Assembly (NCBI GenBank): GCA_964637705.1
Contig: CAZWVM010000001.1
Location: 29,985-93,984, forward strand
Direction of reading: 5' to 3'
DNA: 64,000 bases
DNA from: an uncultured bacterium
GTDB lineage: Bacteria; UBA8481
Positions 1 to 53,318 of the stretch are shown here, piece by piece; the first letter of the stretch is position 1, and every line of letters begins with the position of its first letter. The notes below the pieces were generated by a model, which searched no databases, had not been told where the DNA came from, and saw nothing but the letters and a program-made list of their open reading frames with translations. The translations under genes were made by a program, and so were the position numbers.

Positions 1-2688
1 GTCGATCATCGCGAACCGTTCCGAGGTCAGCCCGGGGCGTCCCCGGTACCCACGTGCCACGCCGTCTCCCCCGATGACGAGGTCGCCGGGAAGGCCGACC
101 GGGACCGGCTGCCCGGCGGCATCCAGGACGCGGACGATCGTCCCGCCGATCGGGCGGCCGATCGGGACGACGGGCACCGCCTCCCACGCCGACGGATGCC
201 CTTCGACCTTCATCGTCGTGGACCAGATGGTCGTCTCGGTCGGGCCGTACATGTTCCAGACCTCGCAGCCGGCGCGCAGGAGCTGCGCGACGAGGCGTCC
301 GGAGACGGCCTCTCCACCGACCAGGGCCTTGAAACCCGGGCGCGGTTTCCACCCGGCCATGAAGAGCATCTTCCAGGTGGCGGGCGTGGCCTGCATCACC
401 GTGGCGCCGCTCTCCCGCAGGAGCCCGGCGAGCCGCGCGGGCTCGGTCGCCTCGCGGCGCGTCGCGACCACGGTGCACGCCCCGGTGACGAGCGGGAGGA
501 AGAGCTCGAGGCCGGCGATGTCGAAGGAGACGGTGGTGACGGCGAGGAGCCGATCGTCGGCGCGCAGGCCCGGATCCTCCTGCATCGCGAGCAGGAAGTT
601 CGCGAGGTTGCGCTGCGTCACCTCGACGCCCTTGGGCGTGCCGGTCGATCCCGAGGTATAGATGATGTATGCGACGGCGTCGGGCCGGGCGGGCGGACGC
701 GGAGGCGCGTCGTTCCCGTCCGCGCACGCCTCCTCCAGCGTCATCGTGAGCGGGGCGCCGGGCGGCGCGGCTCCGTCGGCGAGCAGGAGTCGCGCGCCCG
801 CATCGCGGATCATGAAGTCGAGGCGATCGGCGGGAAAACCGGGATCGAGCGGCAGGTACGCGGCGCCGGCCTTCCAGATCCCGAGGAGCGCGGCCACCAT
901 GCGGCCCGTCCGCTCGGTGCAGACCGCCACCGTGTCCCCCGGGACGACGCCGCCCCGGGCCAGCCGCGCGGCCACGCGATCCGCGAGGCGTCCGAGCGCC
1001 CCGTACGTGAGCCGGTCCTGACCGCTCACGACCGCGATCGTGTCCGGGGAACGCTCGATGAGGCGCTCGATCATCTCGAGCGGCATCCGCTCGAGATCGT
1101 ACGCACCGTGCCGCGTCCCCCAGGTCTCGAGAAGCTCTCGGCGTTCACCGGCCGTGACATGCTCAAGCTGCGCGACCGGGCGGCGGGGGTTCGCGATCGC
1201 GTCGCGGATCAACGCGACCAGGTGCGTCCCCATGCGCCGGATGCGGGCGGGCGCGAAGAGATCGGTGCGATACTCGATGGCCGCCGCGATCCCGTCGGAT
1301 CCCTCGTGGAAGTTGAATGTCAGGTCGAATTTCGCGGTCCCCGTGTGCCCGCTCACCGCCTCCACCGCGACGTCCCGGAGCGCGAGACCGGAGGAGGCAG
1401 CCTGCTGGTTCTGCAGGATCACCATGACGTCGAAGAGCGGGGAGCGGCCGAGGTCGCGGTCGAGGGCGAGGTCGGAGACGAGGAGATCGAAGGGGTAGGA
1501 GGCGTGATCGAAGGCCTCGGCCGCGTTCCGCCCGACCGCGGCCAGGAAGTCCTCGAAGGGAAGAGCCCCGGGGATCGCGTCACGCAGGACGAGCGTGTTG
1601 ATGAAGAGACCGATGAGCGGTTCGATATCGACGTGGTCGCGGCCGGCGACGGGGGTTCCCACGAGGATCTCCGCGGCACCGGTGTAGCGATGGAGGAGCG
1701 CCTTGACCGCGGCGGCCAGGCCCATGAAGAGCGTGACACCGGCCTTGCGGCAGAGATCCTTCAGCCCGGCGGTCGTCGCGGCGTCGATCGGGAAGGTCTC
1801 CTCGGCGCCCGCGAAACCCTGCACGGCCGGGCGCGGGAAATCGGACGGAAGATCGAGAGCCGGGAGGGGCGCGGCCAGCCGGGCGGTCCAGTAGCGGCGC
1901 AGGTCGGCGAGACCGGCGGGATCATCGACGAGCCGGTTCCGCCAGGCCGCGTAGTCGCGGTATTGGACGCGAAGTTCCGGGAGGAGCGGCAGGCGGGCCT
2001 CCCGGATCGCGGCGTAGAACTCACCGATCTCCCTCCCGAGGACCGCAATGGAGACGCCGTCGGAGACGGCGTGGTGAAGTGAAACGGCGAGGAGATGGCG
2101 GGCGGGCGCCGCGCGATAGAGCTCGACGCCGAAGAGCGGCCCGCGCGCGAGATCGAAGGCGCGGCCGAGGAAGGCTCGCGCTCGCGCGACCGCCGCGGTC
2201 CCGGGATCGGGCTCACGGGTGAGGTCGAAGAAGGAGAAGAGAAGCTCGATCGACGGCGCCACACGCTGGAACGGCACGCCCTCGACCGACTCGATGACGG
2301 TCCGCAGCGACTCGTGGCGGGCCGCGATGCCCGCGAAGGCGGCGCGCAGGGCGTCGATGTCGAGGGGCCCGTTCAGCCAGTGCAGGAGCGGCACGTTGTA
2401 CGCGGCGGATGCGCCCTCGAGCCGCTCGAGGATCCAGAGTCGGCGCTGGCCCGGCGACGGTTCGTAGCGCGGTGCATCGGGCAGGCGCGGGATCTCCTCG
2501 CCCCCGGCACGCCCCCGCGCCTCGGCCTCGAGCCGGGCCAGGAGTTCCGCCTCGCAGGCCTTGATCCGGCCCTTGCGCTCGTCCGTCATAGCGCCCGCCG
2601 GCGCGCGGAAGCGGATGCGCCCTCCCTCGACCCACAACCGGATGCCCGCGCGCGCCATCTCCCCGAGGAGCTCGTCCACGCGGCTCAT
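1..2688 (-). CDS. NRPS, N-terminal 896 aa (partial; continues past window start). Domains: N-terminal beta-hairpin docking domain (TubC-like), condensation domain, adenylation domain through core A8.
   Basis: ATG at 2688..2686 overlaps the upstream PKS stop (ATGA). Hand translation of the reverse strand: MSRVDELLGEMARAGIRLWVEGGRIRFRAPAGAMTDERKGRIKACEAELLARLEAE (docking), PSPGQRRLWILERLEG (C1), RHESLRT, HHAVSDGVSI (C3), LTYGAL (A1), KAGAAYLPLDP (A2), YIIYTSGSTGTPKG (A3), NMYGPTETT (A5), GDLVIGGDGVARGYRGRPGLTSERF (A7/A8) reaching position 1. Not in ORF track because it has no in-window stop. Confidence 0.85.
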   Translation of the reverse strand, partial: MSRVDELLGEMARAGIRLWVEGGRIRFRAPAGAMTDERKGRIKACEAELLARLEAEARGRAGGEEIPRLPDAPRYEPSPGQRRLWILERLEGASAAYNVPLLHWLNGPLDIDALRAAFAGIAARHESLRTVIESVEGVPFQRVAPSIELLFSFFDLTREPDPGTAAVARARAFLGRAFDLARGPLFGVELYRAAPARHLLAVSLHHAVSDGVSIAVLGREIGEFYAAIREARLPLLPELRVQYRDYAAWRNRLVDDPAGLADLRRYWTARLAAPLPALDLPSDFPRPAVQGFAGAEETFPIDAATTAGLKDLCRKAGVTLFMGLAAAVKALLHRYTGAAEILVGTPVAGRDHVDIEPLIGLFINTLVLRDAIPGALPFEDFLAAVGRNAAEAFDHASYPFDLLVSDLALDRDLGRSPLFDVMVILQNQQAASSGLALRDVAVEAVSGHTGTAKFDLTFNFHEGSDGIAAAIEYRTDLFAPARIRRMGTHLVALIRDAIANPRRPVAQLEHVTAGERRELLETWGTRHGAYDLERMPLEMIERLIERSPDTIAVVSGQDRLTYGALGRLADRVAARLARGGVVPGDTVAVCTERTGRMVAALLGIWKAGAAYLPLDPGFPADRLDFMIRDAGARLLLADGAAPPGAPLTMTLEEACADGNDAPPRPPARPDAVAYIIYTSGSTGTPKGVEVTQRNLANFLLAMQEDPGLRADDRLLAVTTVSFDIAGLELFLPLVTGACTVVATRREATEPARLAGLLRESGATVMQATPATWKMLFMAGWKPRPGFKALVGGEAVSGRLVAQLLRAGCEVWNMYGPTETTIWSTTMKVEGHPSAWEAVPVVPIGRPIGGTIVRVLDAAGQPVPVGLPGDLVIGGDGVARGYRGRPGLTSERFAMID

Positions 2689-5600
2689 ATCGTGCCTTCC
2701 TCCTCGCCATCCGCGGGCGCGAGCAGGGCGTCGATGCGCGCGGCGAGCTTCGCCACGGTGCGGTCTTCGAAGAGGGCGCTGATCGGGAGCTTCACGCCGA
2801 GCGCCTTGCGGAGGCGCGCGACGACCTGAGCCCCCAGGAGCGAATCGCCCTGCAGGGCGAAGAAGTCGTCGTCGTCGCCGATCACGGCGCGGCCGAGAAG
2901 TTCCGACCAGATGCGCGCGACGATCCCCCGGGTGCCCGTCGGAGCGGCGGACGCGAGGACCGGCGTCTCCCCCGGAGCGCCGGCGATCTCCGCGAGGGAC
3001 TGGAGGCGTGAAGAGCCCGGGGCGAGGCTTGCGAGGCAGGCCTCGTGGTCGGAGAAGTCGAGCAGGAGCCGCCCGATATGCCGTCCCTTCGCCATCTCGC
3101 CGAAGGCCGCGGCGGCCGCGGCGGCGGAGAAGACGCGGAACGGGAGCGGCGGGAAATCCCCGGCCTCGATCCGGCCGCGGACCTCCGCCCAGGTCTCGTC
3201 GAAACCCGGCATGTCCGGGCCCACGTCGATCGCGATGAACGAGATCATCTTCGCGAAGCGCGCGAGCGAGATCGAGGTGCCGGCGAGGATGTCGCGCTTG
3301 CCCAATTCGAGGAAGCGGCCGCCCGGCGCGAGAACCGAGAGACCGAGATCGATCATCTCTCCTCCCAGGGAATTGAGCACAACGTCGACGCCCCGGCCGG
3401 CCGTTCGCTCCATCACGTCCCGTGCGAAAGAGCCGGTCCGGGAATCCATGACCGCGTCGATCCCGAGCGACCCCAGGTAATCCCGCTTCTCCCCGGTGCC
3501 GGCCGTGGCCAGGACGCGGGCGCCGACCGCGCGGGCCACGTTCACGGCCGCGAGCCCGACGCCACCGGCGGCCGAGTGGACGAGAACGGTCTCGCCGCGG
3601 CGCAGGTTCCCGCGCCGCACCAGGGCGGTGTAAGCCGTCATGTACGCGGCGGGCATCGTGGCGGCCTCCTCGAGGGAGAGCCCGGCGGGAACCGGAGCGA
3701 CCCGGGAGGCGGGCGCGGTCATGAAGAGGCGGGAAGCGCCGTTGGAGAAGGCCATGACGCGGTCGCCCGGGGCGACGGTCGTGACGCCCGGGCCGACGCG
3801 CGCGACGGTCCCGGCGCACTCGAGGCCGAAGCGCCAGCGGAGACCGGGCACGTCCGGCAACAGGTTGAGGGCGTAGAGGGTCTCGATGAAATTGAGGGCG
3901 ACGTGCTTGACCTCGATCTCGACCTCGCCCGGGCCGGGCTCGGGCCGCGGCGCCGACGCGAGTCCCATCGCATCGAACGAGCCGCGAACGGACAGCTCGA
4001 GCGCCGCGTTCTCCGGTCGCGCCGCGCCGGGAGCGGTCTCCACGCGGCGCAGGGCGTACCCCTCCGCCTCGAGAACCGGGCGGCCGCCATCGTCGGTCAC
4101 GCGGACCGCGTATGTCGCGGACTCGTCACCGGCCGGACCGGTCGCGTGCGCCGCGGCGCGCAGGCGTCCCTCGGCCGTTCCGTGGAAGCGCACGCGCGCG
4201 TAGGAGAACGGCAGGCGCGCGGAGCCGGCGGGGGCCGCGTGGATCGGGAGGAAACCGGTGGCGTTGTCGAGCAGGGCGGGATGCAGCGCGAAGGCGGCGG
4301 CCTCCTCGCGGTACGCCTCCGGCATCGCGAGCATCGCGGTTCCACGCGACCCGTCACCCGTGAAACGAACCTCCTCGATATTCGACCAGCGGGGCCCGAA
4401 TCCTTCCATCCGCGCGTGGAATTCCGGGGGCGCGTCATGGAACGTGCCGTGAGACGCCGCGGAGACGTCATCGGGGCGGGGCTTTTCATCCGCGGATCGC
4501 ATCACCTCGCCGCGGGCATGGAGTCGCCAGGATGCCTCCGCCTTCGGTGTCGATGAACTGGCGACGAAGAAGTCGCAGGACCCGGCGCGCTCCACCAGGA
4601 TCGTCCGCACCTCGCGCTCCTCCCCCGGATCCAGGACCAGCGGCTGGAGGAAGACCGCATCGCGGATCTCGACCGGACCCTCCCCTTTCATCTCGGCGAA
4701 GGCGGCGCGCGCCATCTCGAGATAGGCGGTGCCGACGAGCACGGGACGACCTTCGAGGCGGTGATCGTCGAGGAGACCGAGGTTCCCCGCCGAGAATCGG
4801 GCGCGGAAGTGAACCGCACCGTTCTCCTCGAGCCGCTCGCCCAGGAGCGGATGCGCCACCGGGCGGGCGACGGTGCGGGGAGGAATCGGTTCCGGCGAGA
4901 CGATGACCTCCGGCCCGAGCCGGCGGCGCAGGATCGCGCCGAGCACCTCCACGCCGGCGCCGGACCAGCCGCGCCGCCGGATCTCCCCGGCAATCCGCCT
5001 CTTCTCCTCCGCCGGCATGGCCGCCTGAGCGATCATCCCGAGGTCCTGCCAGAACCCCCACGCGATCGAGACGGCATAGGTTCCGGTCCTGCGCGCGAAG
5101 CGACGCGTCCAGGCGTCGAGCGCGGCGTTCGCGGCAACGTAATCGGCCTGCCCCGCCACCGGGATGCGAGTGGCGAGCGACGAGCAGGAGACGAGGAACT
5201 CGGGCGGGGACGAGGCGAGGGCCTCCTCGAGAGCGCGCGCCCCTCCGAGCTTTGGAGCGAAGACCGCGGCCGAGCCGTCCGTCGTCATGTCCCGGAGAAG
5301 CGCACCGCCGATGATGCCCGCGGTGTGGATCACGCCGACGAGCGGTCCCTGTTCTCGGGCGCGGGCCACGAGGGCGAAGACCGCGTGCGCGTCGGAGATG
5401 TCCACCGTCTCGATCTCGACCGTGGCGCCTCGTCGCCGGATCGCGTCCAGCCTCTCGCGTACCGCGCGGCCCGCCTCCCCTCCCGGAAGCACCGCCCGGT
5501 CGGCGAGAACGATCCGCGCCCGGCAATGACGCGCGATCCACTCGGCGAAGGCCAGTCCCATCGAACCGAGTCCGCCGGTGACGAGATAGACGCCGCCGTC

Positions 5601-8600: not shown

Positions 8601-8951
8601 GAAGACGCCGATCTTCCGCCGGCACCGGGCCGGATCGATGCCGGCCGACTCGAGGCAGGTCCATGCCTCCTCGAGGAAGACGCGGTGCTGGGGGTCCATG
8701 ATCTCGGCCTCGCGCGGCGGGATCCCGAAGAAGTCCGCATCGAAATCCTCGATGCCCTCGAGCGCCGCGCAGGCCGGGACGTAGGCGGGATCGCGGCGGA
8801 CGGATTCCGGCACCCCGGCCGCGGCCAGTTCCTCGTCGGTGAAGGTGCGGATCGCCTCGCGCCCCTCCTCGAGGAGCCGCCGGTAGGCCTCGACGTCCGG
8901 CGCACCGGGGAAACGGCAGGCCATGCCGATGACCGCGATGAAATGGTTCAT
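2685..8951 (-). CDS. Type I PKS module, 2088 aa: KS-AT-KR(psiKR+KRc)-DH-ER-ACP
   Basis: ORF track 2685..8951. KS: GMACRFPG...CSSSLV...HGTGT. AT: GHSAGEYAAACAAGV with AAHS motif. KR: YLVTGGLGSMG...SSLATRIPVAGQADYVAANAALDAW. DH: HPLLGERLE...LDDHRLEGRPVLVGTAYLEMA. ER: VLVHSAAGGVGLAAVNVARAVGARV. ACP: ALQGDSLLGAQVV. Approximate domain coordinates: KR ~5050-6240, DH ~4030-4860, ER ~3010-3945, ACP ~2725-2955. Confidence 0.9.
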   Translation of the reverse strand: MNHFIAVIGMACRFPGAPDVEAYRRLLEEGREAIRTFTDEELAAAGVPESVRRDPAYVPACAALEGIEDFDADFFGIPPREAEIMDPQHRVFLEEAWTCLESAGIDPARCRRKIGVFAAANLSTYLLHHLHGNPRALEFVAPLQVLMANNNHFVPTRVSYKLGLRGPSVNVNCACSSSLVAVHLACQSLLNYECDMALAGGVAVQLPQDQGYLYAADGILSPDGHCRPFDAAAEGTISGNGAGVVLLKRLDEAVADGDRIRAVVRGSAINNDGNAKIGFTAPGVDGQADAIALALAAAEVDPATITYVEAHGTGTRVGDPIELAALARVFREKTTRTGYCAIGSVKSNFGHLDEAAGVAGFIKTVLMLENRRVFPTLHFRSPNPECAFGTSPFHVAAKAVPWETGGIPRRAGVSSFGLGGTNAHAVLEEYAGGTHGGSVSAAAGVAREPWQWLPISARSASSLESLTGRLAASLDGLDGNPSVLADAAWTLQTGRARFPFRRVVVARDAAEAARHLRCRDAEHVVSNTTPASVPPAPGTPASGTPASVPPASATPPVVFLFSGHGGQYPGMGRGLYENEPVFREALDGIAAALSATAKRDIREIIMGDDVHRIEWTQPAVFALQVALVRLWASRGVRPVALMGHSAGEYAAACAAGVFSPEEGVRLMAERGRLIRSTRPGAMLAVPLPEEEVIARLGASRDLAVAVMTTPGMCVLSGDPGAVEDFRKRAEVDEIECRPVEIDRAAHSPLMDAITGPFREVVAGLPLAPPKISLVSNVTGAPMDPAEATSPDYWARHLRAPVRFSDGIAALARRHPGAVFLEIGPGRTLAAPVARHPAASACTVLSSIRHPEDPIDDSAFFARTTGQLWVAGVEIDAAAEPAGSRRRLPLATTPFERRRFWIEPPHRPEVSAPVEPGPDVATWLYEPAWVEALPPVPVAEAGRVAVVETEEGIGDALAAALAKRGAVVTRVSFERGGTADALPDCLGDPLPDRLVFLAGADESDPARVHGRLAGLARALGERAGSRPCRLVAVAPRMEDSPGQAALQGILRVLPLEYPAVSCRMIGIDRADEETLRCLVDEILDADETEPVVSYRAGRRRLPDAHRIGNGTATFEPWRDGGVYLVTGGLGSMGLAFAEWIARHCRARIVLADRAVLPGGEAGRAVRERLDAIRRRGATVEIETVDISDAHAVFALVARAREQGPLVGVIHTAGIIGGALLRDMTTDGSAAVFAPKLGGARALEEALASSPPEFLVSCSSLATRIPVAGQADYVAANAALDAWTRRFARRTGTYAVSIAWGFWQDLGMIAQAAMPAEEKRRIAGEIRRRGWSGAGVEVLGAILRRRLGPEVIVSPEPIPPRTVARPVAHPLLGERLEENGAVHFRARFSAGNLGLLDDHRLEGRPVLVGTAYLEMARAAFAEMKGEGPVEIRDAVFLQPLVLDPGEEREVRTILVERAGSCDFFVASSSTPKAEASWRLHARGEVMRSADEKPRPDDVSAASHGTFHDAPPEFHARMEGFGPRWSNIEEVRFTGDGSRGTAMLAMPEAYREEAAAFALHPALLDNATGFLPIHAAPAGSARLPFSYARVRFHGTAEGRLRAAAHATGPAGDESATYAVRVTDDGGRPVLEAEGYALRRVETAPGAARPENAALELSVRGSFDAMGLASAPRPEPGPGEVEIEVKHVALNFIETLYALNLLPDVPGLRWRFGLECAGTVARVGPGVTTVAPGDRVMAFSNGASRLFMTAPASRVAPVPAGLSLEEAATMPAAYMTAYTALVRRGNLRRGETVLVHSAAGGVGLAAVNVARAVGARVLATAGTGEKRDYLGSLGIDAVMDSRTGSFARDVMERTAGRGVDVVLNSLGGEMIDLGLSVLAPGGRFLELGKRDILAGTSISLARFAKMISFIAIDVGPDMPGFDETWAEVRGRIEAGDFPPLPFRVFSAAAAAAAFGEMAKGRHIGRLLLDFSDHEACLASLAPGSSRLQSLAEIAGAPGETPVLASAAPTGTRGIVARIWSELLGRAVIGDDDDFFALQGDSLLGAQVVARLRKALGVKLPISALFEDRTVAKLAARIDALLAPADGEEEGTI
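7283..7375 (-). repeat. Degenerate ~15-18-bp tandem repeats (CAGACGCRGGCGKC) encoding a Pro/Ala/Ser/Thr linker (PASVPPAPGTPASGTPASVPPASATPP) between KS and AT
   Basis: Seen directly; low-complexity interdomain linker. Confidence 0.7.
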
Positions 8952-11900
8952 GGCCTCCTCCTCCTCTCCCGTGCCGCGCGCGCCTTCGCGGCGCGCTCGT
9001 CCGCTTCCGCCGTCACGCCGGAAGTCCCGGCCGCGCCCTCGAGGAACGACGCCAGCGCGCTCACCGTCGGATGCTGGTACAGGGCGATGAGCGGGAAGGT
9101 GCGGGCGAGCCGTTCTTTCAGTGTCGCATGGGCGCGGACGATGAGCAACGACTGCGCGCCGATGTCGAAGAAATTCTCGTGGCGGCCGACGCGCGCCGCG
9201 TTCAGTAGACCGGCGAAGATCTCGGCCACGAGGCGCTCCGTGTCCGAGCAGGGCTCCTCGGCGCCGCCGGAGCTCTCGAGGCGGGACGCGTCCGGATCGG
9301 GAAGCCGCCGGCGGTCGATCTTGCCGTGCTCGGTCAGCGGAAAGGACTCGATCGGCACGAAGACCGCGGGCACCATGTAATCCGGAAGCTTCGCCTTCAT
9401 GAAGGAGCGGAGCGCCGTCGGCTCCGGCCGGATGCCGGGCGCGGGCACGAGGTAGGCGACGAGCCGCGTCCCGTCCGGGCTCGTGCCCGGGACGATGAGC
9501 GCCTCGCGGACGTCGGCGTGGGCGGCGAGCACCGACTCGATCTCCCCGAGCTCGATCCGGAAGCCGCGGATCTTGACCTGGTGATCAATCCGGCCGAGAT
9601 ACTCGATGTCGCCGTCGGGCCGGTAACGCGCCAGGTCGCCCGAGCGGTAATGGATCGCCGCGCCGCCCTCCTCGAGCGCCACGAACTTCTCGGCCGTCAG
9701 TTCCGGCCGGTTCAGGTAGCCGTTCGAGACCCCCGCGCCCGCGACATACATCTCGCCGGCGATCCCGATCGGCACGGGCTGCCGCCGGGCATCGAGGATG
9801 CGCACCGTGAGATCGGGGATCGGGACGCCGATCACGCTCCCCTTGCCGTCGAGATCCGCCCGGCCCAGCGCGCGATACGTGACGTGGACCGTCGTCTCGG
9901 TGATGCCATACATGTTCACGAGGAGCGGCTCGCGGTCGCCGAAACGGTCGAACCACGGCCGGAGGTTCTCGAGGTCGAGCGCCTCGCCTCCGAAGACGAC
10001 CGTGCGAAGCGACGGTCGATCCGGGGCGGCCGTGGCCACGGGGATGAGCTGCCGGAATGCCGACGGCGTCTGGTTCAGGACCGTCACCCCCTCGGCGACG
10101 AGCAGGCGATGGAACTCCGCCGGGGAGCGGCTGATCCCGAAGGGGACGACGACGACGCGGCCGCCGTGGAGCAGTGCGCCCCAGATCTCCCAGACCGAGA
10201 AGTCGAAGGCCACGGAGTGGAAGAGCGTCCAGACATCGCTTTCATCGAACCCGAACCAGTGCCTCGTCGCGGAGAAGAGACGGGTGACGTTGCCATGGGT
10301 CACGAGGCAGCCCTTGGGCTGGCCCGTCGAGCCGGAGGTATAGATGACGTAGGCCACGTCGGCGCGCGCGACGGCTATGCCCGGGCGCGTCGCCTCCTCG
10401 TCCGCGAAGGCCGCGCCCCGGTCCATGAGCACGGTCGCGGCCGTGGCGCCGGCGAGCCGATCGAGAAGTTTCTCCTCCGTGACGATGACCGGCGCTTCCG
10501 CATCCTCCATGATGAAGCGCAGCCGCTCCGGGGGATAGGCCGGGTCCATCGGGACATAGGCCGCGCCGGCCTTCAGAATCCCGAGGAGCCCGACGACGAG
10601 ATCCGGCGAGCGCTCGAGGAAGAGACCGACCCGCCGGCCCGGCGCCACGCCGCGCCTCGCCAGGTGCCGGGCCAGCCGGTTCGAGATCTCGTCGAGCTCG
10701 CGGTAGGTCATCTCCCGGCGCGCCCCGACCGGTTCCCCCGATTCGGCGACCGGCTGGAAGGAGACGGCGACGCGATCCGGCGTCCGGCCGGCCTGCTCCT
10801 CGAACCAGGCGACGAGCGTCTCCGGCGGCGTCGGCAACGGGCCGGGACGCGGGTTGAAGTCGACGAGGACCCGATGCCGTTCGGCCTCGGGCAGGATCGG
10901 GAGGTCCCCGATCGCGCACTCCGGGTCCCGGGCCGCACCCCCCAGCAGTTCGAGCAGGTGGTCGCGCATCCGCTCGATCCGGTCGCGGTCGAAGAGGTCG
11001 GTGTTGAAGACGATCGAGGCCGCGAGACCGTCCTCACGCTCTTCGAAGTTGAACTGCAGGTCGTACTTGCTGACCGGGTAGTCGTCGAAGAAGGTCTTCA
11101 CGGCGACGCCCGGCATCGCGATCTCCACGCGCCCCGCGTTCTGCATCACCGCGACGACGTCGAAGAGCGGCATGCGCGAGACGTCCCGCTTCAGGTCGAG
11201 ATCGTCCACGAGCCGGTCGAATGGATACTCCTGCCGCTCGTACGCCTCGGTCGTGGTGGCGCGCACCCGGTCGAGGAGACGCGCGAAGGATTCACCGGCC
11301 CGCACGTCGTCGCGCAGGGCGAGCATGTTGATGAAGAACCCGATCTGGTCCTCGAGATCGGCATGGGTCCGCCCCGCAACCGGCGTCCCGACGACGATAT
11401 CCTCCTGGCCGGTGTAACGGTGGAGCAGGACCTTCACGCCGGCCAGGAGCGTCATGAAGAGGGTGGCCGTGCGGGCGCGCGCGAGCGCCGCGAGCCGATC
11501 CGCGACGTCACGCCCGACCCGGAAGGAAATCGCAGCGCCGTTGTAGGTCTTGACCGGAGGCCGCGGACGATCGGCGGGCAGGTCGAGAACCGGCAAGGTC
11601 CCCCCGAACCGATCCCGCCAGTAGCGCCGATCCCCGTCGGTCTCCTCCGCGCCGAGGCGCGCGGTCTGCCACGCGGCATAATCGCGGTACTGGATCCGGA
11701 GCGGCTTCCACGACGGCGCCCGCCCCTCGACGAGCTCGCGGTAGCGCCCGAGGAACTCGCGCGCCAGGACCCCGAGGCTCCAGTCGTCCGAGACGATGTG
11801 GTGCATGGTGAGGAGGAGCACGTGGCGGTCCGCGGCGAGCCGCAGGAGGCCGACCCGGATGAGCGGGCCCGTCTCCAGTTCGAAGGCGGCGGCCGCGTCG

Positions 11901-34900: not shown

Positions 34901-35465
34901 CCGAGGCGGATGAGCGCGGCCCGCATGAGGGGGGCGGAGGCCAGGCTGAAGGGACGCGTCGTGATCTCGCCGACGAGGCGCTCGAGCTCGGACTCGGCGC
35001 CGGACGATCCGGCCAGGTCGATTCTCTCGAGCCGGAACGACGGATCGGGATCCACGACCTGCACCGCCCGGCCCTCGCGAACCTCGAACCTCGTCCGAAG
35101 AGGCTCGTGACGACGGACGATCGCCCGCAGGGCCTCCTCGAGCGCATCCGCATCGAGCGGACCGTCGAGATGCGCGCAGGCCGGGATGTTGTAGGTCGCC
35201 GAGGGTCCCTCGAGCTGGTCGAGGAACCAGAGACGCTGCTGGGAGAAGGAAAGCGGCGCCTCACCGTCGCCTCCCGGGCTCCCGCCGGGCGCGCCCCGGG
35301 GCGCCTCGGCCTTCAACGCGGCGACGAGTTCCTCCTTCGCGCCGGCGAGATGCTGCCGCAGCTCGTCCGTGAGCGCATGTTTCGGCGCGCGCACCCGAAG
35401 ATGCTCGCCCTCGAGCTCGATGAGGACGCCCCGCTCCGCGAGGAGCCGCCGCAGCTCGGACGTCG

Positions 35466-35469: not shown

Positions 35470-39875
<4,406 letters not shown>

Positions 39876-39886
39876 CGACGCGCCGC

Positions 39887-40834
39887 TCACGGGATCCGCG
39901 TCCACAGGGGATCGAGCGCCGGCAGGGAACCCGAGGCCCGCATCCGTTCCATCCGCCCCGATGCGTCCGGTTCGAAGGCGAGGAGAATGCACGTCCCCTC
40001 CACCTCGAACGTCCTCTCCCCCGAGGGGAAGAGAAGGGCGCCGTCCGTCGCCCTCAGGAGACCGTCCGAGGCCGTGATCGTCATCTCGTTCCCGGTGCCG
40101 ACGGCGCGGTACGTGCCCGCGAAACGCTCCGCGCCCGCGATCCGCGGCGGGCGCGCATCCAGGGGCGGCAGTTCGAGGAAGGCGCAGATCCTGTCAAGGT
40201 GGCTCGCCCAGTCGCCGGCGTCGGTCTCGATCGCCAGGCACGGCATCTCCAAGCGTTGCGCGAGCGTATCGACGAGATCCTGGTAGCGGCGGAAGTATTC
40301 CTCGAGGCCGGGGAGACCCGTGAGCCCGAGCCGCGCCCCGAGCGGCGAGGCGGCGATGCGCGCGGAGAGGAACGGCGCGAACCACTCTCCCCTCTTCTCG
40401 TAGGTCCGGGGTAGCGCCGTCGCGAGGTCCGCATGGCGCAGGAGAACGAGCCTCGGGTCGCAGGGCCTCACGGTCGCGACGACCCGGTCGACGTACTTCG
40501 AAATCTCGTCGAGGGACCGATCGTTGAAGAAGAAAACGTGGAGCGGCGTCTGGAAGAAGGTACTCTCGAAGAGGGTCGTCGCGGTCGCGCCCGGTCCATT
40601 CACGTGGCGCGACCAATTCTCGAGAGCCAGCGCATGAAGCGCCGGGTCGAGCGGTCCGCCGTTGAGCACATCGACGACGCGCGCATGCTCGATGACCGGG
40701 TGCGGCGTCTCGTGCTCGTAGACCCAGCGGGCATCGCGCCCCAGCGAGCGAAGATGGCGGCAGAGGCGATGGGCGGTCGCGGACTTGCCCGTGCCGGGAA
40801 TCCCGTCGATGAAGATGAGCCGCGACGTGGTCAT
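39887..40834 (-). CDS. P-loop NTPase, nucleoside/nucleotide-kinase-like (315 aa), embedded between PKS genes
   Basis: Walker A LIFIDGIPGTGKSATAHRL at the N-terminus; ESTFFQTP and LLRHADLATALPRTYEKRGEWF resemble deoxynucleoside-kinase ERS/lid motifs. ATG at 40834 overlaps the FAAL-PKS stop (ATGA). There is a ~120 aa C-terminal extension with no recognisable motif. Confidence 0.7.
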   Translation of the reverse strand: MTTSRLIFIDGIPGTGKSATAHRLCRHLRSLGRDARWVYEHETPHPVIEHARVVDVLNGGPLDPALHALALENWSRHVNGPGATATTLFESTFFQTPLHVFFFNDRSLDEISKYVDRVVATVRPCDPRLVLLRHADLATALPRTYEKRGEWFAPFLSARIAASPLGARLGLTGLPGLEEYFRRYQDLVDTLAQRLEMPCLAIETDAGDWASHLDRICAFLELPPLDARPPRIAGAERFAGTYRAVGTGNEMTITASDGLLRATDGALLFPSGERTFEVEGTCILLAFEPDASGRMERMRASGSLPALDPLWTRIP

Positions 40835-43800
40835 TCGATCCCCACCAGGCTCTCCAGCCGGCGCAGGCTCTCCTCGAAGCCGTCGCCCCCGGCACGGGCC
40901 GAGGCGGCCGACGGCGCCGCGGCGCGCGGCGCGGGCCGGTCCACCGGGGCTGATGGCGCGATCGCGCCCACGAGATGATCCGCGAGCGCGTTGACGTTCG
41001 GGTAGTTGAAGACGGCAGTCGCGGGAAGGGAACGGCCCATCCCCTTCTCGAGGCGGCGCTTGAACTGCATGGCCGTGATCGAGTCCATGCCCATCGCGAA
41101 GAATCCCGCGTCCCGGTCGAGGTTCTCCGCATCGAGGCGCAGGACATCGGCCAGCGCGGCGGCGAGGTGACGCGCCAGCCGCTCGCGGGCCGCTCCGGGA
41201 TCGAGACCCTCAAGCGCATCCACGAAGGTCGCGCGCGGCGCCGCAGGCGCTATGGGCGCCGCAGGCGCTATGGGCGCCGCGGCCGTAGTCGCGACCGGCT
41301 GAGAACCCAGCCGGCTGAAGAGCGGACGCGAACGACGCGCCTCGTGCACCCCGCGGTAGGTGGCCCAGTCGATCCGCGCCGCGACGATGCGCGGCAGGCG
41401 CGATCCGGCTCGCCGCAGCACCACTTCGACCGCTTCGTCGACGGTCCAGAAAGCCAACCCCATCCGCTCGAGGTTCCCGGCGCCGCCCTCGTGGAGCATG
41501 CCGGCGCCGGAGACCGGGCCGAGCCCGATCGAGACGGTCGGCGCGCCGGCGGCCGAGCGACGAGCCGCGAAGAGGTCGAGGAAGTGGTTCGTCGCGACGT
41601 AGTGCGCCTGCTCCGCCGCGCCCCACGCGGCGACCATCGAAGAGAGGCAGGCGAAGAAATCGAGTGTCCGGCCGCGGGCGAGGCGGTCGAGGTTGAGGGC
41701 GCCGCGCGCCTTGGCGGCGAGAAGCGGTTCCAGGTCCTCGGCCGTCAAGCCGTCGATCCGCCGCTTCCGGCCCGATCCGGCGGCATGGATGATACCGCGG
41801 AGCGGCGGCAAGCCGTCCAGCGCCTGCTCCAGCGTCGCGACGATCGCCGTGTCGCCCACGTCCGCGGCCCGCACCGCGACGCGCGCGCCCAGCGCCTCGA
41901 TCGCCTCCACCGCCGCGCGACGTTCCGCCGTGGCGGCCCCGGTGCGACCGACGAGGAGGAGCTGACTCGCGCCCCGCCGGGCGAGACCGCGCGCCAGCCC
42001 GAGCCCCAGGCCGCCGAGGCCGCCCGTGACGAGGTAGGTCGCATCGCGGCGGATCGCGACCGGACGCGTATCCGGAACGCCCGGCTCGATCCGAGCCCCG
42101 TGCCGCGCGCCGGCGCGATACGCGATCTCCTCCTCGTCATCCCCCGAGCCGAGCTCGGCGATGATCTCGTTCGCACCGGCCTCGGCATCGAGGTCTACGA
42201 GCCGGACGACGACATCGGGATGCTCGAGAGGTATGTTGCGCCCGAGACCCCAGAGCCAGGACTGGCTCAAACCCGCGACGCGGTCGTCCGGCCGAACCTG
42301 CTGGGCATCGCGGGTCACGATGAGGAGCCGTGCGCCGTCCGGTCGTCCGGTCATTGCCTTCGCGAGTCCGGCCACGCGGAGGAAATCCTCTCCGCAAGGT
42401 TCAGGATCCCCGCCGCGATCCGGCGCGAGGAGGATCGCCGCAGTCGCATCCGCCGCCCTCGACTCGTCGAGGACGATCCCGCCGCGCGCCTCGATGAGCG
42501 CCGCGAGTTCGTTGCGCAGGGCTTCGCCCGCACCCGAGATCAGGCACGCTCCGGGAGCACGTTCCGGCCGCGATGCCGCCACCGCGGGCCACGCGACCGA
42601 AGAAAGGTTGTCGGAGGCTTCGTGCGGGCGGGGAACGGCAGCCGGTCCCTCGCCCCGTATCCAGTAGCGCCTCCGCTGGAACGGGTAGGTCGGCAGGGCG
42701 ATGCGTCGTCCGCCGCTCGCGCGGAGCAAGGCCGCATCGTCGATCGCGATGCCTCCGGCGAAGAGCGCGCCGAGCGCCAGGCGGATCTGCCGCGCCGCCG
42801 GTCGCTCGCGGTCGAGTGAGGCCGCCCGGCAGCGCCCCGTCCGCCCCACGTTCTCCTCGGCGATCCCGAGGAGCGTCGGGTGAGGTCCGATCTCGAGGAA
42901 GACCCGGTGACCGGCGCCGTCGAGCGCGCGCAGGTTCTCGCCGAAGCGCACCGTCTCGCGGAAGTGACGCACCCAGTACCCGGCCGTCGTCACCTCGTCG
43001 CCCGCCGCGCCCCCGCTCACGTTCGACATCAGGGGGATCCTCGGCCTCGAGAACCGGACGCCTCCCGCGAAGCGTTCGAACGCGGCCAGGATCGGTTCGA
43101 CGAGCGGCGAGTGGGCCGCGACCGGGATCTCGAGCCTCGTGCACTTGAGGCCGCGCGCCGCGAGCTTCGCGATCGCGGACTCGAGCGCGGCGCGCCGGCC
43201 CGAGAGGATCGTGTTGACCGGCGAGTTCGAGACCGCGACGGCGAGGTCCTCACCCTCCGGTATCGCCTCCCGGACCACCGCCTCGTCCGCCATGACCGCG
43301 GCCATGGCACCGTCGGGCGGCAGCGTCTGCATCAGGCGGCCGCGCTCGGCGACGAGCGCCAATCCGTCTTCGAAGGTCATCACGCCGGCCGCGCAGGCCG
43401 CCGCGTACTCGCCGGCGCTGTGCCCCGCGACGGCCGCGGGCCGCACGCCCCAGGAGCCCCAGAGCTCGGTCAGCGCGTACTGGAGGGCGAAGAGCGCGGG
43501 CTGGGACCAGTCCATGCGCTTCAGGCGATCGGTATCGCGATAGAGCGCGTCGCAGAGCGAGGCGTCGAGGAGCGGCCGCAGGATCGCGTCGCACCGGTCG
43601 ATCGTGCGGCGGAACACGGGCTCGCGCTCGTAAAGGTCGGCACCCATCCCCGGGTAGATCGAACCGTGGCCTGTGTAGAGGAAGACGACGCCGGGATCGC
43701 CCGGGAGAACCTCTCCCGTGACCAGCCCCTCGTGCTCCTCGCCCCGTGCCGCCGCCTCGAGCGCCGCCGCCATCGAGGCCGCGTTCTCCGCGACGACACC

Positions 43801-46800
43801 CAGGCGCTTCGGGCAACGCGAGCGGCCGAGGCTCGAGGTGACGGCGAGATCCGTGAGCGGGATCTTCGGGCGCTCGGCGAGGAACGCGGCGTAGCGGGCC
43901 GCGAGTTCCCGCAGGGCGGGTTCGGTACGAGCCGAGAGCCACAGGTGATTCCAGGTCGTGCCGTCTCGCCTCTCGTCCCGGTCCTCGCCCGGTCCTCCCT
44001 CCACGATGGCATGTGCGTTCGTGCCCCCGAAGCCGAACGAACTGACGCCCGCCAGTCGCTCACCCTCCCACGGCCGGCGCTCCGACGCGATCGTGAACGC
44101 CGTCCCCGCGATCGGGAGGCGCGGATTCATCGACGTGTAATGCAGTTGCCGGGGAATCTCGGCATGGCCGAGCATCAGGACGACCTTGATGAGACCCGCG
44201 ATCCCGGCCGCGCTCTCGAGGTGACCGATGTTCGCCTTCACCGACCCGATGATGCAGGGAGCCCCGTCCCGTCCCTCGCCGAGCGCCTCCCGGATCGCCC
44301 CGACCTCGATGGGGTCGCCGAGAGCCGTGCCCGTGCCGTGTGCCTCGACATAGCCGATCGCGCCCGGTTCGACCCCTGCGTCGCGGAGTGCGCGGCGGAT
44401 CACGTCCACCTGGGCCGGCCCGTTCGGCGCGGTCAGGCCGTTCGAACGGCCGTCCTGGTTCACGGCCGTGCCGCGAATGACGGCGAGGACGCGGTCCCCG
44501 TCGCGCCGGGCGTCCGCGAGGCGCTTCAGCACCACGATGCCGCACCCCTCGGACCTCACGTACCCGTCGGCCTTCGCGTCGAAGGCCTTGCACCGGCCGT
44601 CCGGCGCCATGAGGCCCGCCTTCGAGAAGGAGATGGTGTACTCGGGCGAGAGGACGAGGTTCACCCCGCCGGAGAGAACCAGGTCGCATTCGCCGCCGCG
44701 CAGGGCCCGAACGCCCTGGTGGAGAGCCACGAGCGAGGAGGAGCAGGCCGTGTCGACCGCGACGCTCGGTCCACGCAGGTCGAGGAAATAGGAGAGGCGG
44801 TTGGCGGTGACGGAGAGCGCGGTGCCGGTCCCGGCATAGATGTCCGTCCCGCCGTTGGACGCCAGCAGCATCCGGGCGTAGTCGAAGTTGCTCACGCCGA
44901 CGAAGACCCCGGTGTTCGTGCCGGCCAGGCCGTCGGCCGCCACGCCCGCGTCCTCCAGCGCCTCCCAGCTCACCTCCAGGAGCAGGCGTTGCTGCGGGTC
45001 CAGGCTCTCCGCCTCGCGCGGCGATAGCCCGAAGAAGTCGGCGTCGAAGTCGCCGACGCCGTCGAGAAAGCCGCCCCATTTCGTCGTCGTCTTACCCGTC
45101 GCGTCCGGGTCGGGATCGTAGAGCGCCGCCGCATCCCACCGGTCCGCCGGCACCTCGCGGACCGCGTCCACGCCGTCGCGCAGGAGGTTCCAGAACGATT
45201 CCGCGTCCGGCGCGCCGGGGAAGCGGCAGGCCAGGCCGATGACCGCGACCGGTTCGCGGTCGCCTGGATCCGTCGGTTTCGCTGAGGCACGGCGCGCTGC
45301 GCCCCCGCGCGTCTCTCCGCCCAGGAACGAGACGAGCGCCGAGACGGTCGGGTGGTCGTAGAGAAGGGTCGGCGGCAGATCGCGGCCGAGCATCGCGGCC
45401 ATTTCGCCCGAGACCTGGACCGCGCCGGCGGAGTCGAGGCCGTAGGAAGCGAAGGAGGCCCGGGGATCGATCGAGGAGGCGGGAATACCGAAGCGCCGCG
45501 CCAGGATCCCGAGGAGTTTCGTCCGGATGTCGTCGCCCGAGGCGGTCTCCCCCGCCCCGGCCGGCCCCGGCTCACGCCTGACCGCCACCGCCTCGAGCGT
45601 TCCGTCGAGGAACGCCTTCCGGCAGGCGCCGCGCATCACCTTGCCGCTCGAGGTCTTGGGCAGGGCGTTGGGCTTCAACAGGACGACGGCGTGCACGGGC
45701 ACGCCGTGTTCCTCGACGATTCTCTCGCGCAGGCGCCCCAGGACCTCGTCGGCGTCGATCCTGCGGAGCCAGGTCCGCTCGACTTCCTGGACGACGACGA
45801 TCCGTTCCCCCTCCCCGGTCTCGATCGCGAAGGCCGCGGCGCCGGAGGCGCGCAGGGCGGGGTGAGCCGTCTCCGAGGTCAGTTCCAGGTCCTGCGGGTA
45901 ATGGTTGAGACCGTTGACGATGATCATGTCCTTGATCCGGCCCGTCACGAAGAGCTCGCCGCCGTGCAGGAATCCCAGGTCGCCGGTGCGCAGCATCGGC
46001 CCCTCGCCGGAACCGGCGATCCGGCCGTCGAACACGTCCCGAGTCTCTCCGGGCCTGTTCCAGTAGCCGCCGGCCACGATCCGGCCCCCGACCCAGATCT
46101 CTCCGACCCGATCCTCCGGGCACGCATCGCACGACTCCGGTTCCACGATCCGGACCGTCGTCTCGGAGACCGGCACTCCGCAGCCCACGATCGGCACCGC
46201 GCCGGGTGCATGCTCAGCGATGGCCCGGACCCGGTGTCGCGCCAATTCCTCCGCGTCCACGTAGAGGACCGTGGCCGCCCGGTCCGCGGGATTCGTCGTC
46301 ACCTTCAGCGTCGATTCGGCGAGACCGAAGCCCGGGGTGAGAACGTTGCGCCCCAGGCCGCACGGCGCAAAGGCCTCGTGGAAACGGTCGAGCGTCTCGG
46401 CGCGCACCGTCTCCGCCGCGTTCAGGGCGACGCGCCAGCTCGAGAGATCGAGCCCGGCCTTCTGCTCGCCGGTGATCTTCTTCGCGCAGAGATCGTAGGC
46501 GAAGTTCGGCGCGGCCGCGTGGGTGCCGCGGTAGCGCGAGATCGCGGCCAACCACCGGCGAGGTCTCTGCAGGAAGGCCGCGGGCGGCATCATGACGCAG
46601 GTGAAGCCCATGAGGAGCGGCTGCAGGAGACCGTAGATCAGCCCCATGTCATGGAAGAGCGGCAGCCAGGTCACCATGACGCTTCCGGGCGCATGTCCCC
46701 AGTTCGCGTCCATGTCGCGGACGTTGTCGAGGATGTGCCGGTGCGTGACCATGACCCCGCGCGGCGCCGAGGTCGAGCCCGAGGTGTATTGCAGGAGCGC

Positions 46801-47280
46801 GAGCGTCTCCGGCCCGATCGCGGGCCGCTGCCACGCGGGGATCTCCTCCCCGCCCTCGGCATCGGTCGCGATCCAGTCGAGCGCACCGAGTTCCGGGTAG
46901 TGCGCGACCTGGGTGTCACGCGCCGCCATCACCCGTGTCGTGGTCAGGACCCGGCGCGCGCCGGCGTCGGAAGCGATGACCGGGAGCCGTCGGTCCGGCC
47001 GGAGACGGCCGGGCGGATAGCATGGGACCGGCACGACGCCGGCGTAGAGGCAGCCGCAGTAGGCGGTGACGAACTCGAGGCCCGAGGGATACAGGAGCAG
47101 GGCCCGGTCTCCCGTCATGCCCCCGGTCGCCAGGCGGGCCGCCAGGACCCGAGCCCGGTGATCCAGGTCACGGAAGGTCAGCCGGCCCGCTTCGGTCTCT
47201 CCGTCCTCCAGGAAGATGCAAGCCGTTCCGCCCGGGTCGGTTTCCGCCCGGCGCGCAAGGACCTCGACAACGGTTCTCAC
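40831..47280 (-). CDS. Loading/first-extension megasynthase, 2149 aa: FAAL-ACP-KS-AT-KR-ACP-Cdock
   Basis: ORF track 40831..47280; start codon is GTG. FAAL: LTFRDLDHRARVLAARL, LQYTSGSTSAPRGVMVTH, ILPKRGRGL-free long insertion region, GDLGFLHGGELFVTGR. ACP: YGLDSAGAVQV. KS: VIGLACRFPG...CSSSLVALH. AT: GHSAGEYAAACAAGV, VAAHSPL. KR: TYLVTGGLGGLGLGLARGL. ACP: FFAMGMDSITAM. C-terminal LRRLESLVGIE. Confidence 0.9.
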   Translation of the reverse strand: MRTVVEVLARRAETDPGGTACIFLEDGETEAGRLTFRDLDHRARVLAARLATGGMTGDRALLLYPSGLEFVTAYCGCLYAGVVPVPCYPPGRLRPDRRLPVIASDAGARRVLTTTRVMAARDTQVAHYPELGALDWIATDAEGGEEIPAWQRPAIGPETLALLQYTSGSTSAPRGVMVTHRHILDNVRDMDANWGHAPGSVMVTWLPLFHDMGLIYGLLQPLLMGFTCVMMPPAAFLQRPRRWLAAISRYRGTHAAAPNFAYDLCAKKITGEQKAGLDLSSWRVALNAAETVRAETLDRFHEAFAPCGLGRNVLTPGFGLAESTLKVTTNPADRAATVLYVDAEELARHRVRAIAEHAPGAVPIVGCGVPVSETTVRIVEPESCDACPEDRVGEIWVGGRIVAGGYWNRPGETRDVFDGRIAGSGEGPMLRTGDLGFLHGGELFVTGRIKDMIIVNGLNHYPQDLELTSETAHPALRASGAAAFAIETGEGERIVVVQEVERTWLRRIDADEVLGRLRERIVEEHGVPVHAVVLLKPNALPKTSSGKVMRGACRKAFLDGTLEAVAVRREPGPAGAGETASGDDIRTKLLGILARRFGIPASSIDPRASFASYGLDSAGAVQVSGEMAAMLGRDLPPTLLYDHPTVSALVSFLGGETRGGAARRASAKPTDPGDREPVAVIGLACRFPGAPDAESFWNLLRDGVDAVREVPADRWDAAALYDPDPDATGKTTTKWGGFLDGVGDFDADFFGLSPREAESLDPQQRLLLEVSWEALEDAGVAADGLAGTNTGVFVGVSNFDYARMLLASNGGTDIYAGTGTALSVTANRLSYFLDLRGPSVAVDTACSSSLVALHQGVRALRGGECDLVLSGGVNLVLSPEYTISFSKAGLMAPDGRCKAFDAKADGYVRSEGCGIVVLKRLADARRDGDRVLAVIRGTAVNQDGRSNGLTAPNGPAQVDVIRRALRDAGVEPGAIGYVEAHGTGTALGDPIEVGAIREALGEGRDGAPCIIGSVKANIGHLESAAGIAGLIKVVLMLGHAEIPRQLHYTSMNPRLPIAGTAFTIASERRPWEGERLAGVSSFGFGGTNAHAIVEGGPGEDRDERRDGTTWNHLWLSARTEPALRELAARYAAFLAERPKIPLTDLAVTSSLGRSRCPKRLGVVAENAASMAAALEAAARGEEHEGLVTGEVLPGDPGVVFLYTGHGSIYPGMGADLYEREPVFRRTIDRCDAILRPLLDASLCDALYRDTDRLKRMDWSQPALFALQYALTELWGSWGVRPAAVAGHSAGEYAAACAAGVMTFEDGLALVAERGRLMQTLPPDGAMAAVMADEAVVREAIPEGEDLAVAVSNSPVNTILSGRRAALESAIAKLAARGLKCTRLEIPVAAHSPLVEPILAAFERFAGGVRFSRPRIPLMSNVSGGAAGDEVTTAGYWVRHFRETVRFGENLRALDGAGHRVFLEIGPHPTLLGIAEENVGRTGRCRAASLDRERPAARQIRLALGALFAGGIAIDDAALLRASGGRRIALPTYPFQRRRYWIRGEGPAAVPRPHEASDNLSSVAWPAVAASRPERAPGACLISGAGEALRNELAALIEARGGIVLDESRAADATAAILLAPDRGGDPEPCGEDFLRVAGLAKAMTGRPDGARLLIVTRDAQQVRPDDRVAGLSQSWLWGLGRNIPLEHPDVVVRLVDLDAEAGANEIIAELGSGDDEEEIAYRAGARHGARIEPGVPDTRPVAIRRDATYLVTGGLGGLGLGLARGLARRGASQLLLVGRTGAATAERRAAVEAIEALGARVAVRAADVGDTAIVATLEQALDGLPPLRGIIHAAGSGRKRRIDGLTAEDLEPLLAAKARGALNLDRLARGRTLDFFACLSSMVAAWGAAEQAHYVATNHFLDLFAARRSAAGAPTVSIGLGPVSGAGMLHEGGAGNLERMGLAFWTVDEAVEVVLRRAGSRLPRIVAARIDWATYRGVHEARRSRPLFSRLGSQPVATTAAAPIAPAAPIAPAAPRATFVDALEGLDPGAARERLARHLAAALADVLRLDAENLDRDAGFFAMGMDSITAMQFKRRLEKGMGRSLPATAVFNYPNVNALADHLVGAIAPSAPVDRPAPRAAAPSAASARAGGDGFEESLRRLESLVGIE
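41235..41292 (-). repeat. 18-bp x 3 tandem repeat encoding (IAPAAP)2-TTAAAP linker before the C-terminal ACP of the loading gene
   Basis: ggcgccgcaggcgctatg x2 plus a degenerate third copy. Confidence 0.7.
45510..47280 (-). other. Fatty acyl-AMP ligase (FAAL) starter domain
   Basis: N-terminal ~590 aa of the loading gene, with adenylate-forming cores and a downstream ACP instead of a CoA-ligase context. This architecture is established for lipopeptide/lipoketide initiation. Confidence 0.75.
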
Positions 47281-48174: not shown

Positions 48175-48240
48175 ATATCTCCTGAAAATTCTGCGCCCGG
48201 CGGCGTAAAAAGCAAGCGGAATTATCGTCGGGGATAATCA

Positions 48241-48269
48241 TTGACTCCCTCGAGGCCCGGGCGTACATT
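48241..48269 (+). promoter_or_regulatory. Candidate sigma70-type promoter TTGACT-N17-TACATT for the DUF697-small TM-secretin operon
   Basis: Read directly in the divergent 48175-48347 gap, ~80 nt upstream of the GGAGG-preceded ATG at 48348. Confidence 0.3.
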
Positions 48270-48347
48270 TTCCCCGTTCGAGGTCGATTTCCCATGGAGT
48301 TTCGCGATGGAGATTGGCCGAGCCTCAAAGACCCCCGGAGGTGCGTG

Positions 48348-53316: not shown

Positions 53317-53318
53317 GA

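Follow-up and report, generated by a model that had tools for sequence, protein, structure and literature searches.

Iturin-type assembly lines follow their fatty acyl-AMP ligase (FAAL) and acyl carrier protein (ACP) with a KS-aminotransferase. Corramycin biosynthesis starts from the architecture FAAL-ACP-C-FkbH(HAD)-T (PMC10099666), and the pathway's kinase ComG transfers phosphate to a hydroxyl group on its peptide product (PMC10996006). A further precedent is the polyketide synthase (PKS) module of ClbB, written KS-AT-KR-DH-ER-T, which converts an Ala thioester into 4-aminopentanoate (PMC5490422). Here, we analyzed a window of 64,000 nt (contig CAZWVM010000001.1, positions 29,985 to 93,984) from an uncultured bacterium of the lineage UBA8481, in which seven long open reading frames (ORFs), genes A to G, run head to tail on the minus strand across positions 1-47280. 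Six of the seven encode megasynthases, comprising a FAAL-ACP loading unit, four PKS modules and seven nonribosomal peptide synthetase (NRPS) modules as mapped with Pfam, the seventh NRPS module (gene G) being truncated at the window edge. We consider it likely that most of a single hybrid PKS/NRPS line, co-linear and translationally coupled, lies within the window and serves an uncharacterized lipopeptide-like product. The cluster is an orphan of a very common, well-known kind, and it leaves the current understanding of assembly lines unchallenged; its less ordinary details are a kinase-like gene between synthase genes and the colibactin-type arrangement of one module.

The minus strand was taken as coding because the third-position GC content (GC3) of its ORFs (0.87-0.91 for the seven cluster ORFs) lies above that of long antisense ORFs (0.73-0.75), against an overall GC content of ~71% across 1-47 kb (0.70-0.73 within the cluster). 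Seven co-directional genes had already been described in an original prediction made from the letters alone, and minus-strand ORFs do fill 1-47280. The same prediction of a FAAL-primed hybrid line with at least 11 modules agrees with the Pfam maps (loading unit, four PKS and seven NRPS modules). Its seven-gene assembly line stands for the six synthases only, as gene B encodes a P-loop kinase-fold protein and no synthase. From upstream to downstream, the genes are:

40831-47280, minus strand: gene A, 2149 aa, FAAL-ACP-KS-AT-KR-ACP (loading unit and PKS module 1)
39887-40834, minus strand: gene B, 315 aa, predicted P-loop thymidylate-kinase fold with a C-terminal beta domain
35466-39890, minus strand: gene C, 1474 aa, putative helical N-dock and KS-AT-KR-ACP (PKS module 2)
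19945-35469, minus strand: gene D, 5174 aa, TubC_N-C-A-PCP-E-C-A-PCP-KS-AT-KR-ACP-C-A-PCP
8948-19948, minus strand: gene E, 3666 aa, putative helical N-dock, C-A-PCP, C-A(MT)-PCP, C-A-PCP and a basic tail
2685-8951, minus strand: gene F, 2088 aa, KS-AT-KR-DH-ER-ACP
1-2688, minus strand: gene G, first 896 aa, TubC_N-C-A, with the A domain cut by the window edge

Direct reading of the sequence revealed 4-nt stop/start overlaps at all six junctions:

40831-40834, minus strand: ATGA, junction A/B
39887-39890, minus strand: GTGA, junction B/C
35466-35469, minus strand: GTGA, junction C/D
19945-19948, minus strand: ATGA, junction D/E
8948-8951, minus strand: ATGA, junction E/F
2685-2688, minus strand: ATGA, junction F/G

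The tetranucleotides ATGA and GTGA occur on the minus strand ~5 times per kb; the six overlaps are nevertheless not due to chance, because each falls exactly at the end of one long frame and the start of the next. Identical junction overlaps recur in a homologous locus (L003). The claim that every junction is such an overlap thus stood, although the five listed in its support omitted the sixth (39887-39890). Gene C has an alternative ATG start 15 nt downstream of the GTG at 39890; the GTG is favored because it gives an N-terminus of the same length as that of the L003 counterpart, counted up to the conserved ERAR(T/S)EP motif. Upstream of the start codons of D, F and G are purine-rich stretches resembling Shine-Dalgarno sequences. 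No sigma-70-like promoter was found upstream of A on the minus strand, and scans for Rfam families, tRNAs and an MbtH-like motif returned none.

Domain boundaries were taken from Pfam scans, with gene D scanned as overlapping pieces. The boundaries used below are:

45586-47256, minus strand: FAAL of A, aa 9-565 (AMP-binding/DIP2-like C-domain)
44137-45255, minus strand: KS of A
42763-43686, minus strand: AT of A
41509-42042, minus strand: KR of A
40972-41166, minus strand: C-terminal ACP of A
35311-35442, minus strand: TubC_N dock of D
30850-32160, minus strand: E domain of D, residues ~1104-1540 (Condensation family and epimerase motifs)
23290-27603, minus strand: internal KS-AT-KR-ACP of D
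13313-13735, minus strand: MT within the second A domain of E, residues 2072-2212
5043-5594, minus strand: KR of F, residues 1120-1303
4029-4853, minus strand: DH of F, residues 1367-1641
3060-3935, minus strand: ER of F, residues 1673-1964
2733-2921, minus strand: ACP of F, residues 2011-2073
2530-2679, minus strand: TubC_N dock of G

The N-terminus of A was fitted best by FAAL models of NCBIfam (380-447 bits; PRK05850 447, FadD32 418), whereas most fatty-acid--CoA ligase models reached ~150 bits at most; every one of these scores lies below the curated equivalog cut-offs. An ACP follows directly. Catalytic residues are intact in the KS, AT, carrier, C and E domains. All four KSs retain the Cys/His/His triad (TACSS/ACSS/CACSS, HGTGT or HGTAT, N[IF][GA]H), all four ATs carry the serine motif GHS[AVG]G[ED], and each module contains a PP-binding domain. 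The Gln of the methylmalonyl type is absent from the GHSxG motifs of all four ATs. Malonyl-specific ATs carry HAFH and methylmalonyl-specific ATs carry YASH; the HAFH motif occurs only in the AT of C, those of A, D and F having [VR]AAH. Malonyl extender units are predicted from these motifs with low confidence. HHxxxD is present in seven C domains and in the E domain, and in the third C domain of E (~11790-11810) HHIVSDD replaces HHxxxDG. All six complete A domains contain the Lys517 motif GK[IVL]DR, the A domain of G being the truncated one. In the E domain of D we found PIQRWFF, HHLVIDG, EGHGRD and FNYLG; the C domain that follows it is an outlier among the C domains (26-32% identity), as expected for the D-donor type to which it probably belongs. 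The MT of E carries VLEIGCGTG and NEMTRFRYDV, which we take to be typical of NRPS N-methyltransferases. The E domain and the embedded MT of the original prediction are both present, in D and within an A domain of E. No TE, R or terminal C release domain was detected in cis within the window by Pfam. The predicted absence of a TE holds for such cis domains; a discrete type II thioesterase gene does lie at 52540-53337. Likewise, the line runs past the left window edge as foreseen, gene G being cut at residue 896.

As the original prediction had suggested, specificity codes were read for the seven A domains, here from a multiple alignment of all A domains with GrsA-PheA. The register was validated by the GrsA-PheA reference, which gave back its published code, DAWTIAAIC. 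The codes, numbered by gene and position, are:

D1 (minus strand): DLFNNALTY, a code that we take to be that of Ala
D2 (minus strand): DVWHMSLVD, Ser, with the exact code in PMC12283262
D3 (minus strand, A domain 19948-21400): DLKNHGNDI, homoserine (Hse)-like by similarity to DLKNVGSDVK and DLKNLGTDVK, two Hse codes (PMC12283262)
E1 (minus strand): DALWLGGTF, Val, compared with the published code DALWIGGTFK
E2 (minus strand, A domain 12449-15271): DIWEMTADD, diamino-acid-like by partial match to the diaminobutyrate (Dab) code DVWQMIGDDK (PMC12283262), with which it has W239, M299 and the D330-D331-K end in common
E3 (minus strand): DFWNVGMVH, Thr, compared with the published code DFWNIGMVHK
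G1 (minus strand): DILQLGMIW, Gly, with the exact code in PMC12283262

The Asp pair at 330/331 of E2 suggests a cationic substrate, and the N-methylated residue installed by this module is probably a diamino acid; its A4 motif reads SSD where FD is usual. With the tenth residue included, D3 and E2 read DLKNHGNDIK and DIWEMTADDK, both of them unusual codes. D-Ala is predicted because the E domain follows the Ala-coded A domain. Three KR-only PKS modules are predicted to leave beta-hydroxyls and one to be fully reducing. The predicted chain reads acyl-(C2,OH)-(C2,OH)-D-Ala-Ser-(C2,OH)-Hse-like-Val-N-Me-(diamino-acid-like)-Thr-(C2 saturated)-Gly-... The domain content agrees with the beta-hydroxylated acyl polyketide-peptide proposed earlier, including its D-residue, methylated residue and fully reduced late unit.

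Taking the enzymology from domain content, we propose the following pathway. The FAAL would adenylate a fatty acid and load it onto its fused ACP, after which modules 1 (A) and 2 (C) would add two malonate units, with reduction stopping at the alcohol to give a 3,5-dihydroxyacyl chain. Gene D would then add Ala (epimerized to D-Ala), Ser, a C2 unit with a beta-hydroxyl and a homoserine-like residue, and gene E would add Val, an N-methylated probable diamino acid and Thr. Gene F would lengthen the Thr thioester by a single C2 unit, reduced to full saturation, to form a gamma-amino acid, and gene G would add Gly before the line goes on past the left window edge. Gene B would most likely phosphorylate a hydroxyl, either on an intermediate or on the product, serving self-protection or tailoring.

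The subunit order implied by this pathway is mostly matched by the protein termini. TubC_N (PF18563) docks on the NRPS genes that follow PKS ACPs, anticipated as beta-hairpin N-docks, scored above the Pfam cut-off of 26 in D (39.9 bits) and G (50.7 bits), and the tails of their partners are acidic (C ...EWEEMLL, F ...GEEEGTI). Contacts of C with D and of F with G are accordingly predicted to pair an acidic tail with a TubC-type beta-hairpin dock. The tail of A (...LRRLESLVGIE) and the N-terminus of C, a ~30-residue helix before the KS, are both conserved in L003 and plausibly form a helical/coiled-coil docking pair of the PKS type. Gene D ends ...LTEEEARALLAS... and E begins ...LESLSPEKRALVMRRLRE, plausibly a helical COM-like pair typical of NRPS subunits. 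The pairing of E with F was favored by gene order and by exclusion of other partners.

Gene F is a ClbB-type module by sequence and architecture. Its order KS-AT-KR-DH-ER-ACP differs from the canonical KS-AT-DH-ER-KR-ACP; a fully reducing late ketide module had been predicted and is present, but this unusual order had gone unremarked. In a tblastn comparison with clbB of E. coli CFT073, F residues 5-825 (KS-AT) were colinear at 38% identity, and residues 1119-1964 (KR-DH-ER) fell on clbB within a single high-scoring pair at 30% identity. Two F homologs (P0083 and P0101) have the same domain order. By analogy, ClbB chemistry on Thr would give 4-amino-5-hydroxyhexanoate. The internal KS-AT-KR of D also resembles the F type, with 42-46% identity to the F-type PKSs of two other loci (L005 and L006).

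Gene B is the only feature of the cluster with real potential for surprise. It overlaps A through ATGA and C through GTGA, consistent with translational coupling, and its Walker A motif (GIPGTGKS) is intact. No Pfam family scored above any cut-off in gene B; it fell outside PF02223 and TIGR00041, the latter matching only faintly in its relatives, and it reached none of the NCBIfam kinase models, the best being PRK06761 ('hypothetical protein', 63 bits, well short of its cut-off of 270). A structure predicted with AlphaFold from five sequences (mean pLDDT 79) comprised a P-loop kinase domain (residues 1-225) and a seven-strand beta domain (residues 235-301). Foldseek matched this model to thymidylate kinases in the PDB (E ~1e-6), in weak agreement with a profile search of PDB sequences (thymidylate kinase (TMK), E 0.002). 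A profile search of 1.84 billion representatives yielded 2019 relatives, mostly ~320 aa, with the invariant motifs GxPGxGKS and RWxYExExxHP, and by sequence gene B belongs to a large two-domain family without a name. The closest relatives (P0002 and P0006, 38-39% identity) are flanked by FAAL-PKS and KS-AT-KR-ACP genes with a 4-nt overlap on each side (L001, L003 and L004), and a TubC_N-NRPS of 5663 aa comes next in this type of gene order. The order PKS/B/PKS is kept in related metagenomic clusters, and distant relatives adjoin ABC exporters (L002), a Liv-type importer (P0003) or unrelated genes (P0129 and P0130). Judged by this distribution, gene B belongs to the conserved make-up of such clusters and was drawn from a widely distributed family. 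We infer that its most likely role is that of a hydroxyl kinase whose acceptor is either an intermediate or the product.

The reading of the window as one line has to be weighed against the possibility that F and G form a separate cassette. The E-F junction shows no recognizable docking pair: the C-terminal tail of E (8951-9070) is strongly basic and helix-like (...AEADERAAKARAARERRRRP), the start of F (8940-8951) leaves only four residues before the KS core, and no known dock type fits. Moreover, two other loci (L005, 10001-19851; L006, 134-11565) carry a cassette of an F-type PKS followed by a TubC_N-C-A(Gly) NRPS, without a loading module. These PKSs (KS-AT-KR-DH-ER-ACP, 44-46% identical to F) end in the tail EEEGEL, the NRPSs are 45-49% identical to G with the Gly code DILQLGLIW, and in both loci the F-type PKS is the first operon gene, with non-coding DNA upstream. 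These two PKSs may start chains, possibly iteratively. On this view the operon would contain two assembly lines, or the pathway would be convergent: A, C, D and E would build a lipo-octapeptide-like chain, and F would initiate a saturated acyl chain of its own, possibly iteratively, and pass it to the Gly-specific NRPS. We regard this as unlikely: despite the F-type PKSs heading operons with a G-like NRPS next and the lack of an N-terminal dock on F, E lacks a release domain and F a loading domain, the two genes are translationally coupled, the C-terminus of E and the N-terminus of F alone are left unpaired in the window, and the KS of F groups with the internal PCP-fed KS of D and with the PCP-fed module of ClbB. 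Besides the E-F junction and the operon position of F-type PKSs, several points weigh against a single, fully predicted line: the A-domain codes of D3 and E2 lack exact precedent, [VR]AAH in three of the four ATs makes the extender prediction uncertain and of low confidence, the window shows neither the end of the line nor its release step, and the wider gene B family lies mostly outside biosynthetic clusters and points to no substrate. We still prefer one co-linear line through E, F and G.

Two further proposals depart from that account, one on the role of gene B and one on novelty. Gene B might act on-line, phosphorylating the module-1 beta-hydroxyl on the ACP to give a phosphorylated lipid head, or to set up phosphate elimination to an alkene in place of the DH missing from modules 1 and 2. 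The slot between the module 1 and module 2 genes, with 4-nt overlaps on both sides and kept in L001, L003 and L004 although B itself shares only 38% identity with its counterparts, would fit such a role, as would the intact Walker A and kinase fold and the lack of a DH in both modules. However, a TMK-fold kinase acting on a carrier-bound polyketide has no known precedent, gene order need not mirror the timing of action, the conserved C-terminal dock of A and N-terminal dock of C appear to pair directly, and members of the wider family adjoin transporters, not synthases; we consider on-line action improbable. A similarly long shot is the broader idea that, with B and its PKS-embedded relatives, P-loop kinases of the TMK fold would for the first time have entered a polyketide line, acting on the module-1 beta-hydroxyl or another lipopeptide hydroxyl to yield a phospholipopeptide, or driving a dehydration that replaces a DH. 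Regarding novelty, FAAL-primed hybrid clusters are numerous and the literature search was limited, so the cluster could already be characterized under an existing product name. This appears very unlikely. Among 5.8 billion proteins, B and F each had one identical entry, with the next relatives at 39% for B and 44-46% for full-length F; the A(MT) module of E had a best match of 56%, among proteins including those of Acidobacteriota metagenome-assembled genomes (MAGs), and that search returned no ortholog from an L003-type contig. Apart from the source record, the closest relatives came from metagenomes (38-71% identity). L003 contains the same first four genes with the same overlaps and the same Ala code in the first A domain (identities: A 71% over the first 1200 aa, C 50%, D 51% over 1760 aa). 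The cluster was absent from GTDB species representatives scanned with gene B, and none of the products in the table of a FAAL review fits the predicted chain (PMC11837247). No matching characterized cluster was found in the protein collection, the GTDB representatives or that table. Identity with corramycin or vioprolide was rejected, as those lines go FAAL-ACP-C-FkbH and this one FAAL-ACP-KS-AT-KR-ACP. The preferred reading remains an orphan line with gene B as a hydroxyl kinase of its product or an intermediate.

The right flank (47281-64000) has a GC content of 0.62-0.69, compared with 0.70-0.73 in the cluster, and contains two genes, 5-9 kb upstream of the cluster, that may belong to the pathway and head the following list:

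52540-53337, minus strand: discrete type II thioesterase, start codon uncertain (PF00975, E 4e-37, GHSLG), ~5 kb upstream of A
55146-56804, minus strand: ABC exporter, fused permease and ATPase (TIGR01194, 353.6 bits against a cut-off of 286.2; Pfam ABC_membrane and ABC_tran)
47635-48174, minus strand: first DUF697 paralog
48294-48845, plus strand: second DUF697 paralog
49174-50388, plus strand: short secretin
51594-52565, minus strand: Band7/SPFH protein
53319-54005, minus strand: third DUF697 paralog
53998-55326, minus strand: ParA/MinD-like ATPase

Sequence features make the thioesterase a probable accessory gene and the exporter, of the cyclic-peptide type, the likely product exporter; their link to the pathway is only probable because the right-flank genes were not found upstream of L003. 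All genes in this list except the secretin and the second DUF697 gene share the strand of the cluster. The DUF697/ParA/Band7/secretin set between cluster and exporter is an unusual grouping. The flank also contains a solute-binding protein gene on the cluster strand and two dCache sensor proteins, of which one (60032-62212) is an adenylate/guanylate cyclase. The ORF at 56988-59828 may be two genes, as its high-GC3 frame shifts near 59000. The PrfC gene begins near 63270 and is cut by the right window edge; this fragment is 68-75% identical to the matches listed, mostly MAGs of Verrucomicrobiota and Planctomycetota. A myxobacterial source, to which the GC content and TubC docks could point, is not supported by these data.

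The source organism has no close sequenced relative, and the cluster offers a concrete genome-mining target, the predicted lipopeptide having a dihydroxy-acyl head, several polar residues and two ketide units derived from amino acids. Because it can be tested cheaply, the conserved kinase-fold gene lodged between PKS genes makes a good lead to either a new enzyme of self-resistance or a new tailoring step, and the split, putatively trans-acting ClbB-type module provides a second context in which to study the unusual order of the reductive loop.

Among P-loop kinases (thymidylate/deoxynucleoside kinase fold, chloramphenicol phosphotransferase, TmrB/TmrD), gene B is set apart by falling outside the Pfam and NCBIfam TMK models and by its extra RWxYExExxHP motif and C-terminal beta domain of ~90 aa. 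With ComG, the self-resistance kinase of corramycin, it shares the placement of a kinase gene inside a FAAL-primed PKS/NRPS cluster, a functional analogy; homology was rejected, as ComG has the bilobed aminoglycoside-phosphotransferase fold (PF01636) and gene B a P-loop. In tubulysin, the dock of TubC reportedly mediates an NRPS-to-NRPS contact, whereas both TubC-type docks here would join a PKS ACP to an NRPS C domain. Gene F resembles ClbB in its colinear KS-AT-KR-DH-ER-carrier order. ClbB adds a single, fully reduced malonate unit to an amino-acyl chain and so forms a gamma-amino acid (PMC5490422), and F may do likewise. Yet the ClbB module is fused in cis behind C-A-T, while F is a separate protein that would be fed in trans and lacks an N-terminal dock; F also has an acidic C-terminal tail suited to a TubC-type dock, is only 30-38% identical and is predicted to receive Thr in place of Ala. 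Overall, the line shares with mycosubtilin/iturin, puwainaphycin, hapalosin, corramycin and vioprolide the priming of PKS/NRPS modules through a FAAL-fused ACP (PMC11837247), and it differs from the iturin-type, corramycin and vioprolide lines in the two KR-only PKS modules that follow the FAAL-ACP and are predicted to build a 3,5-dihydroxyacyl head.

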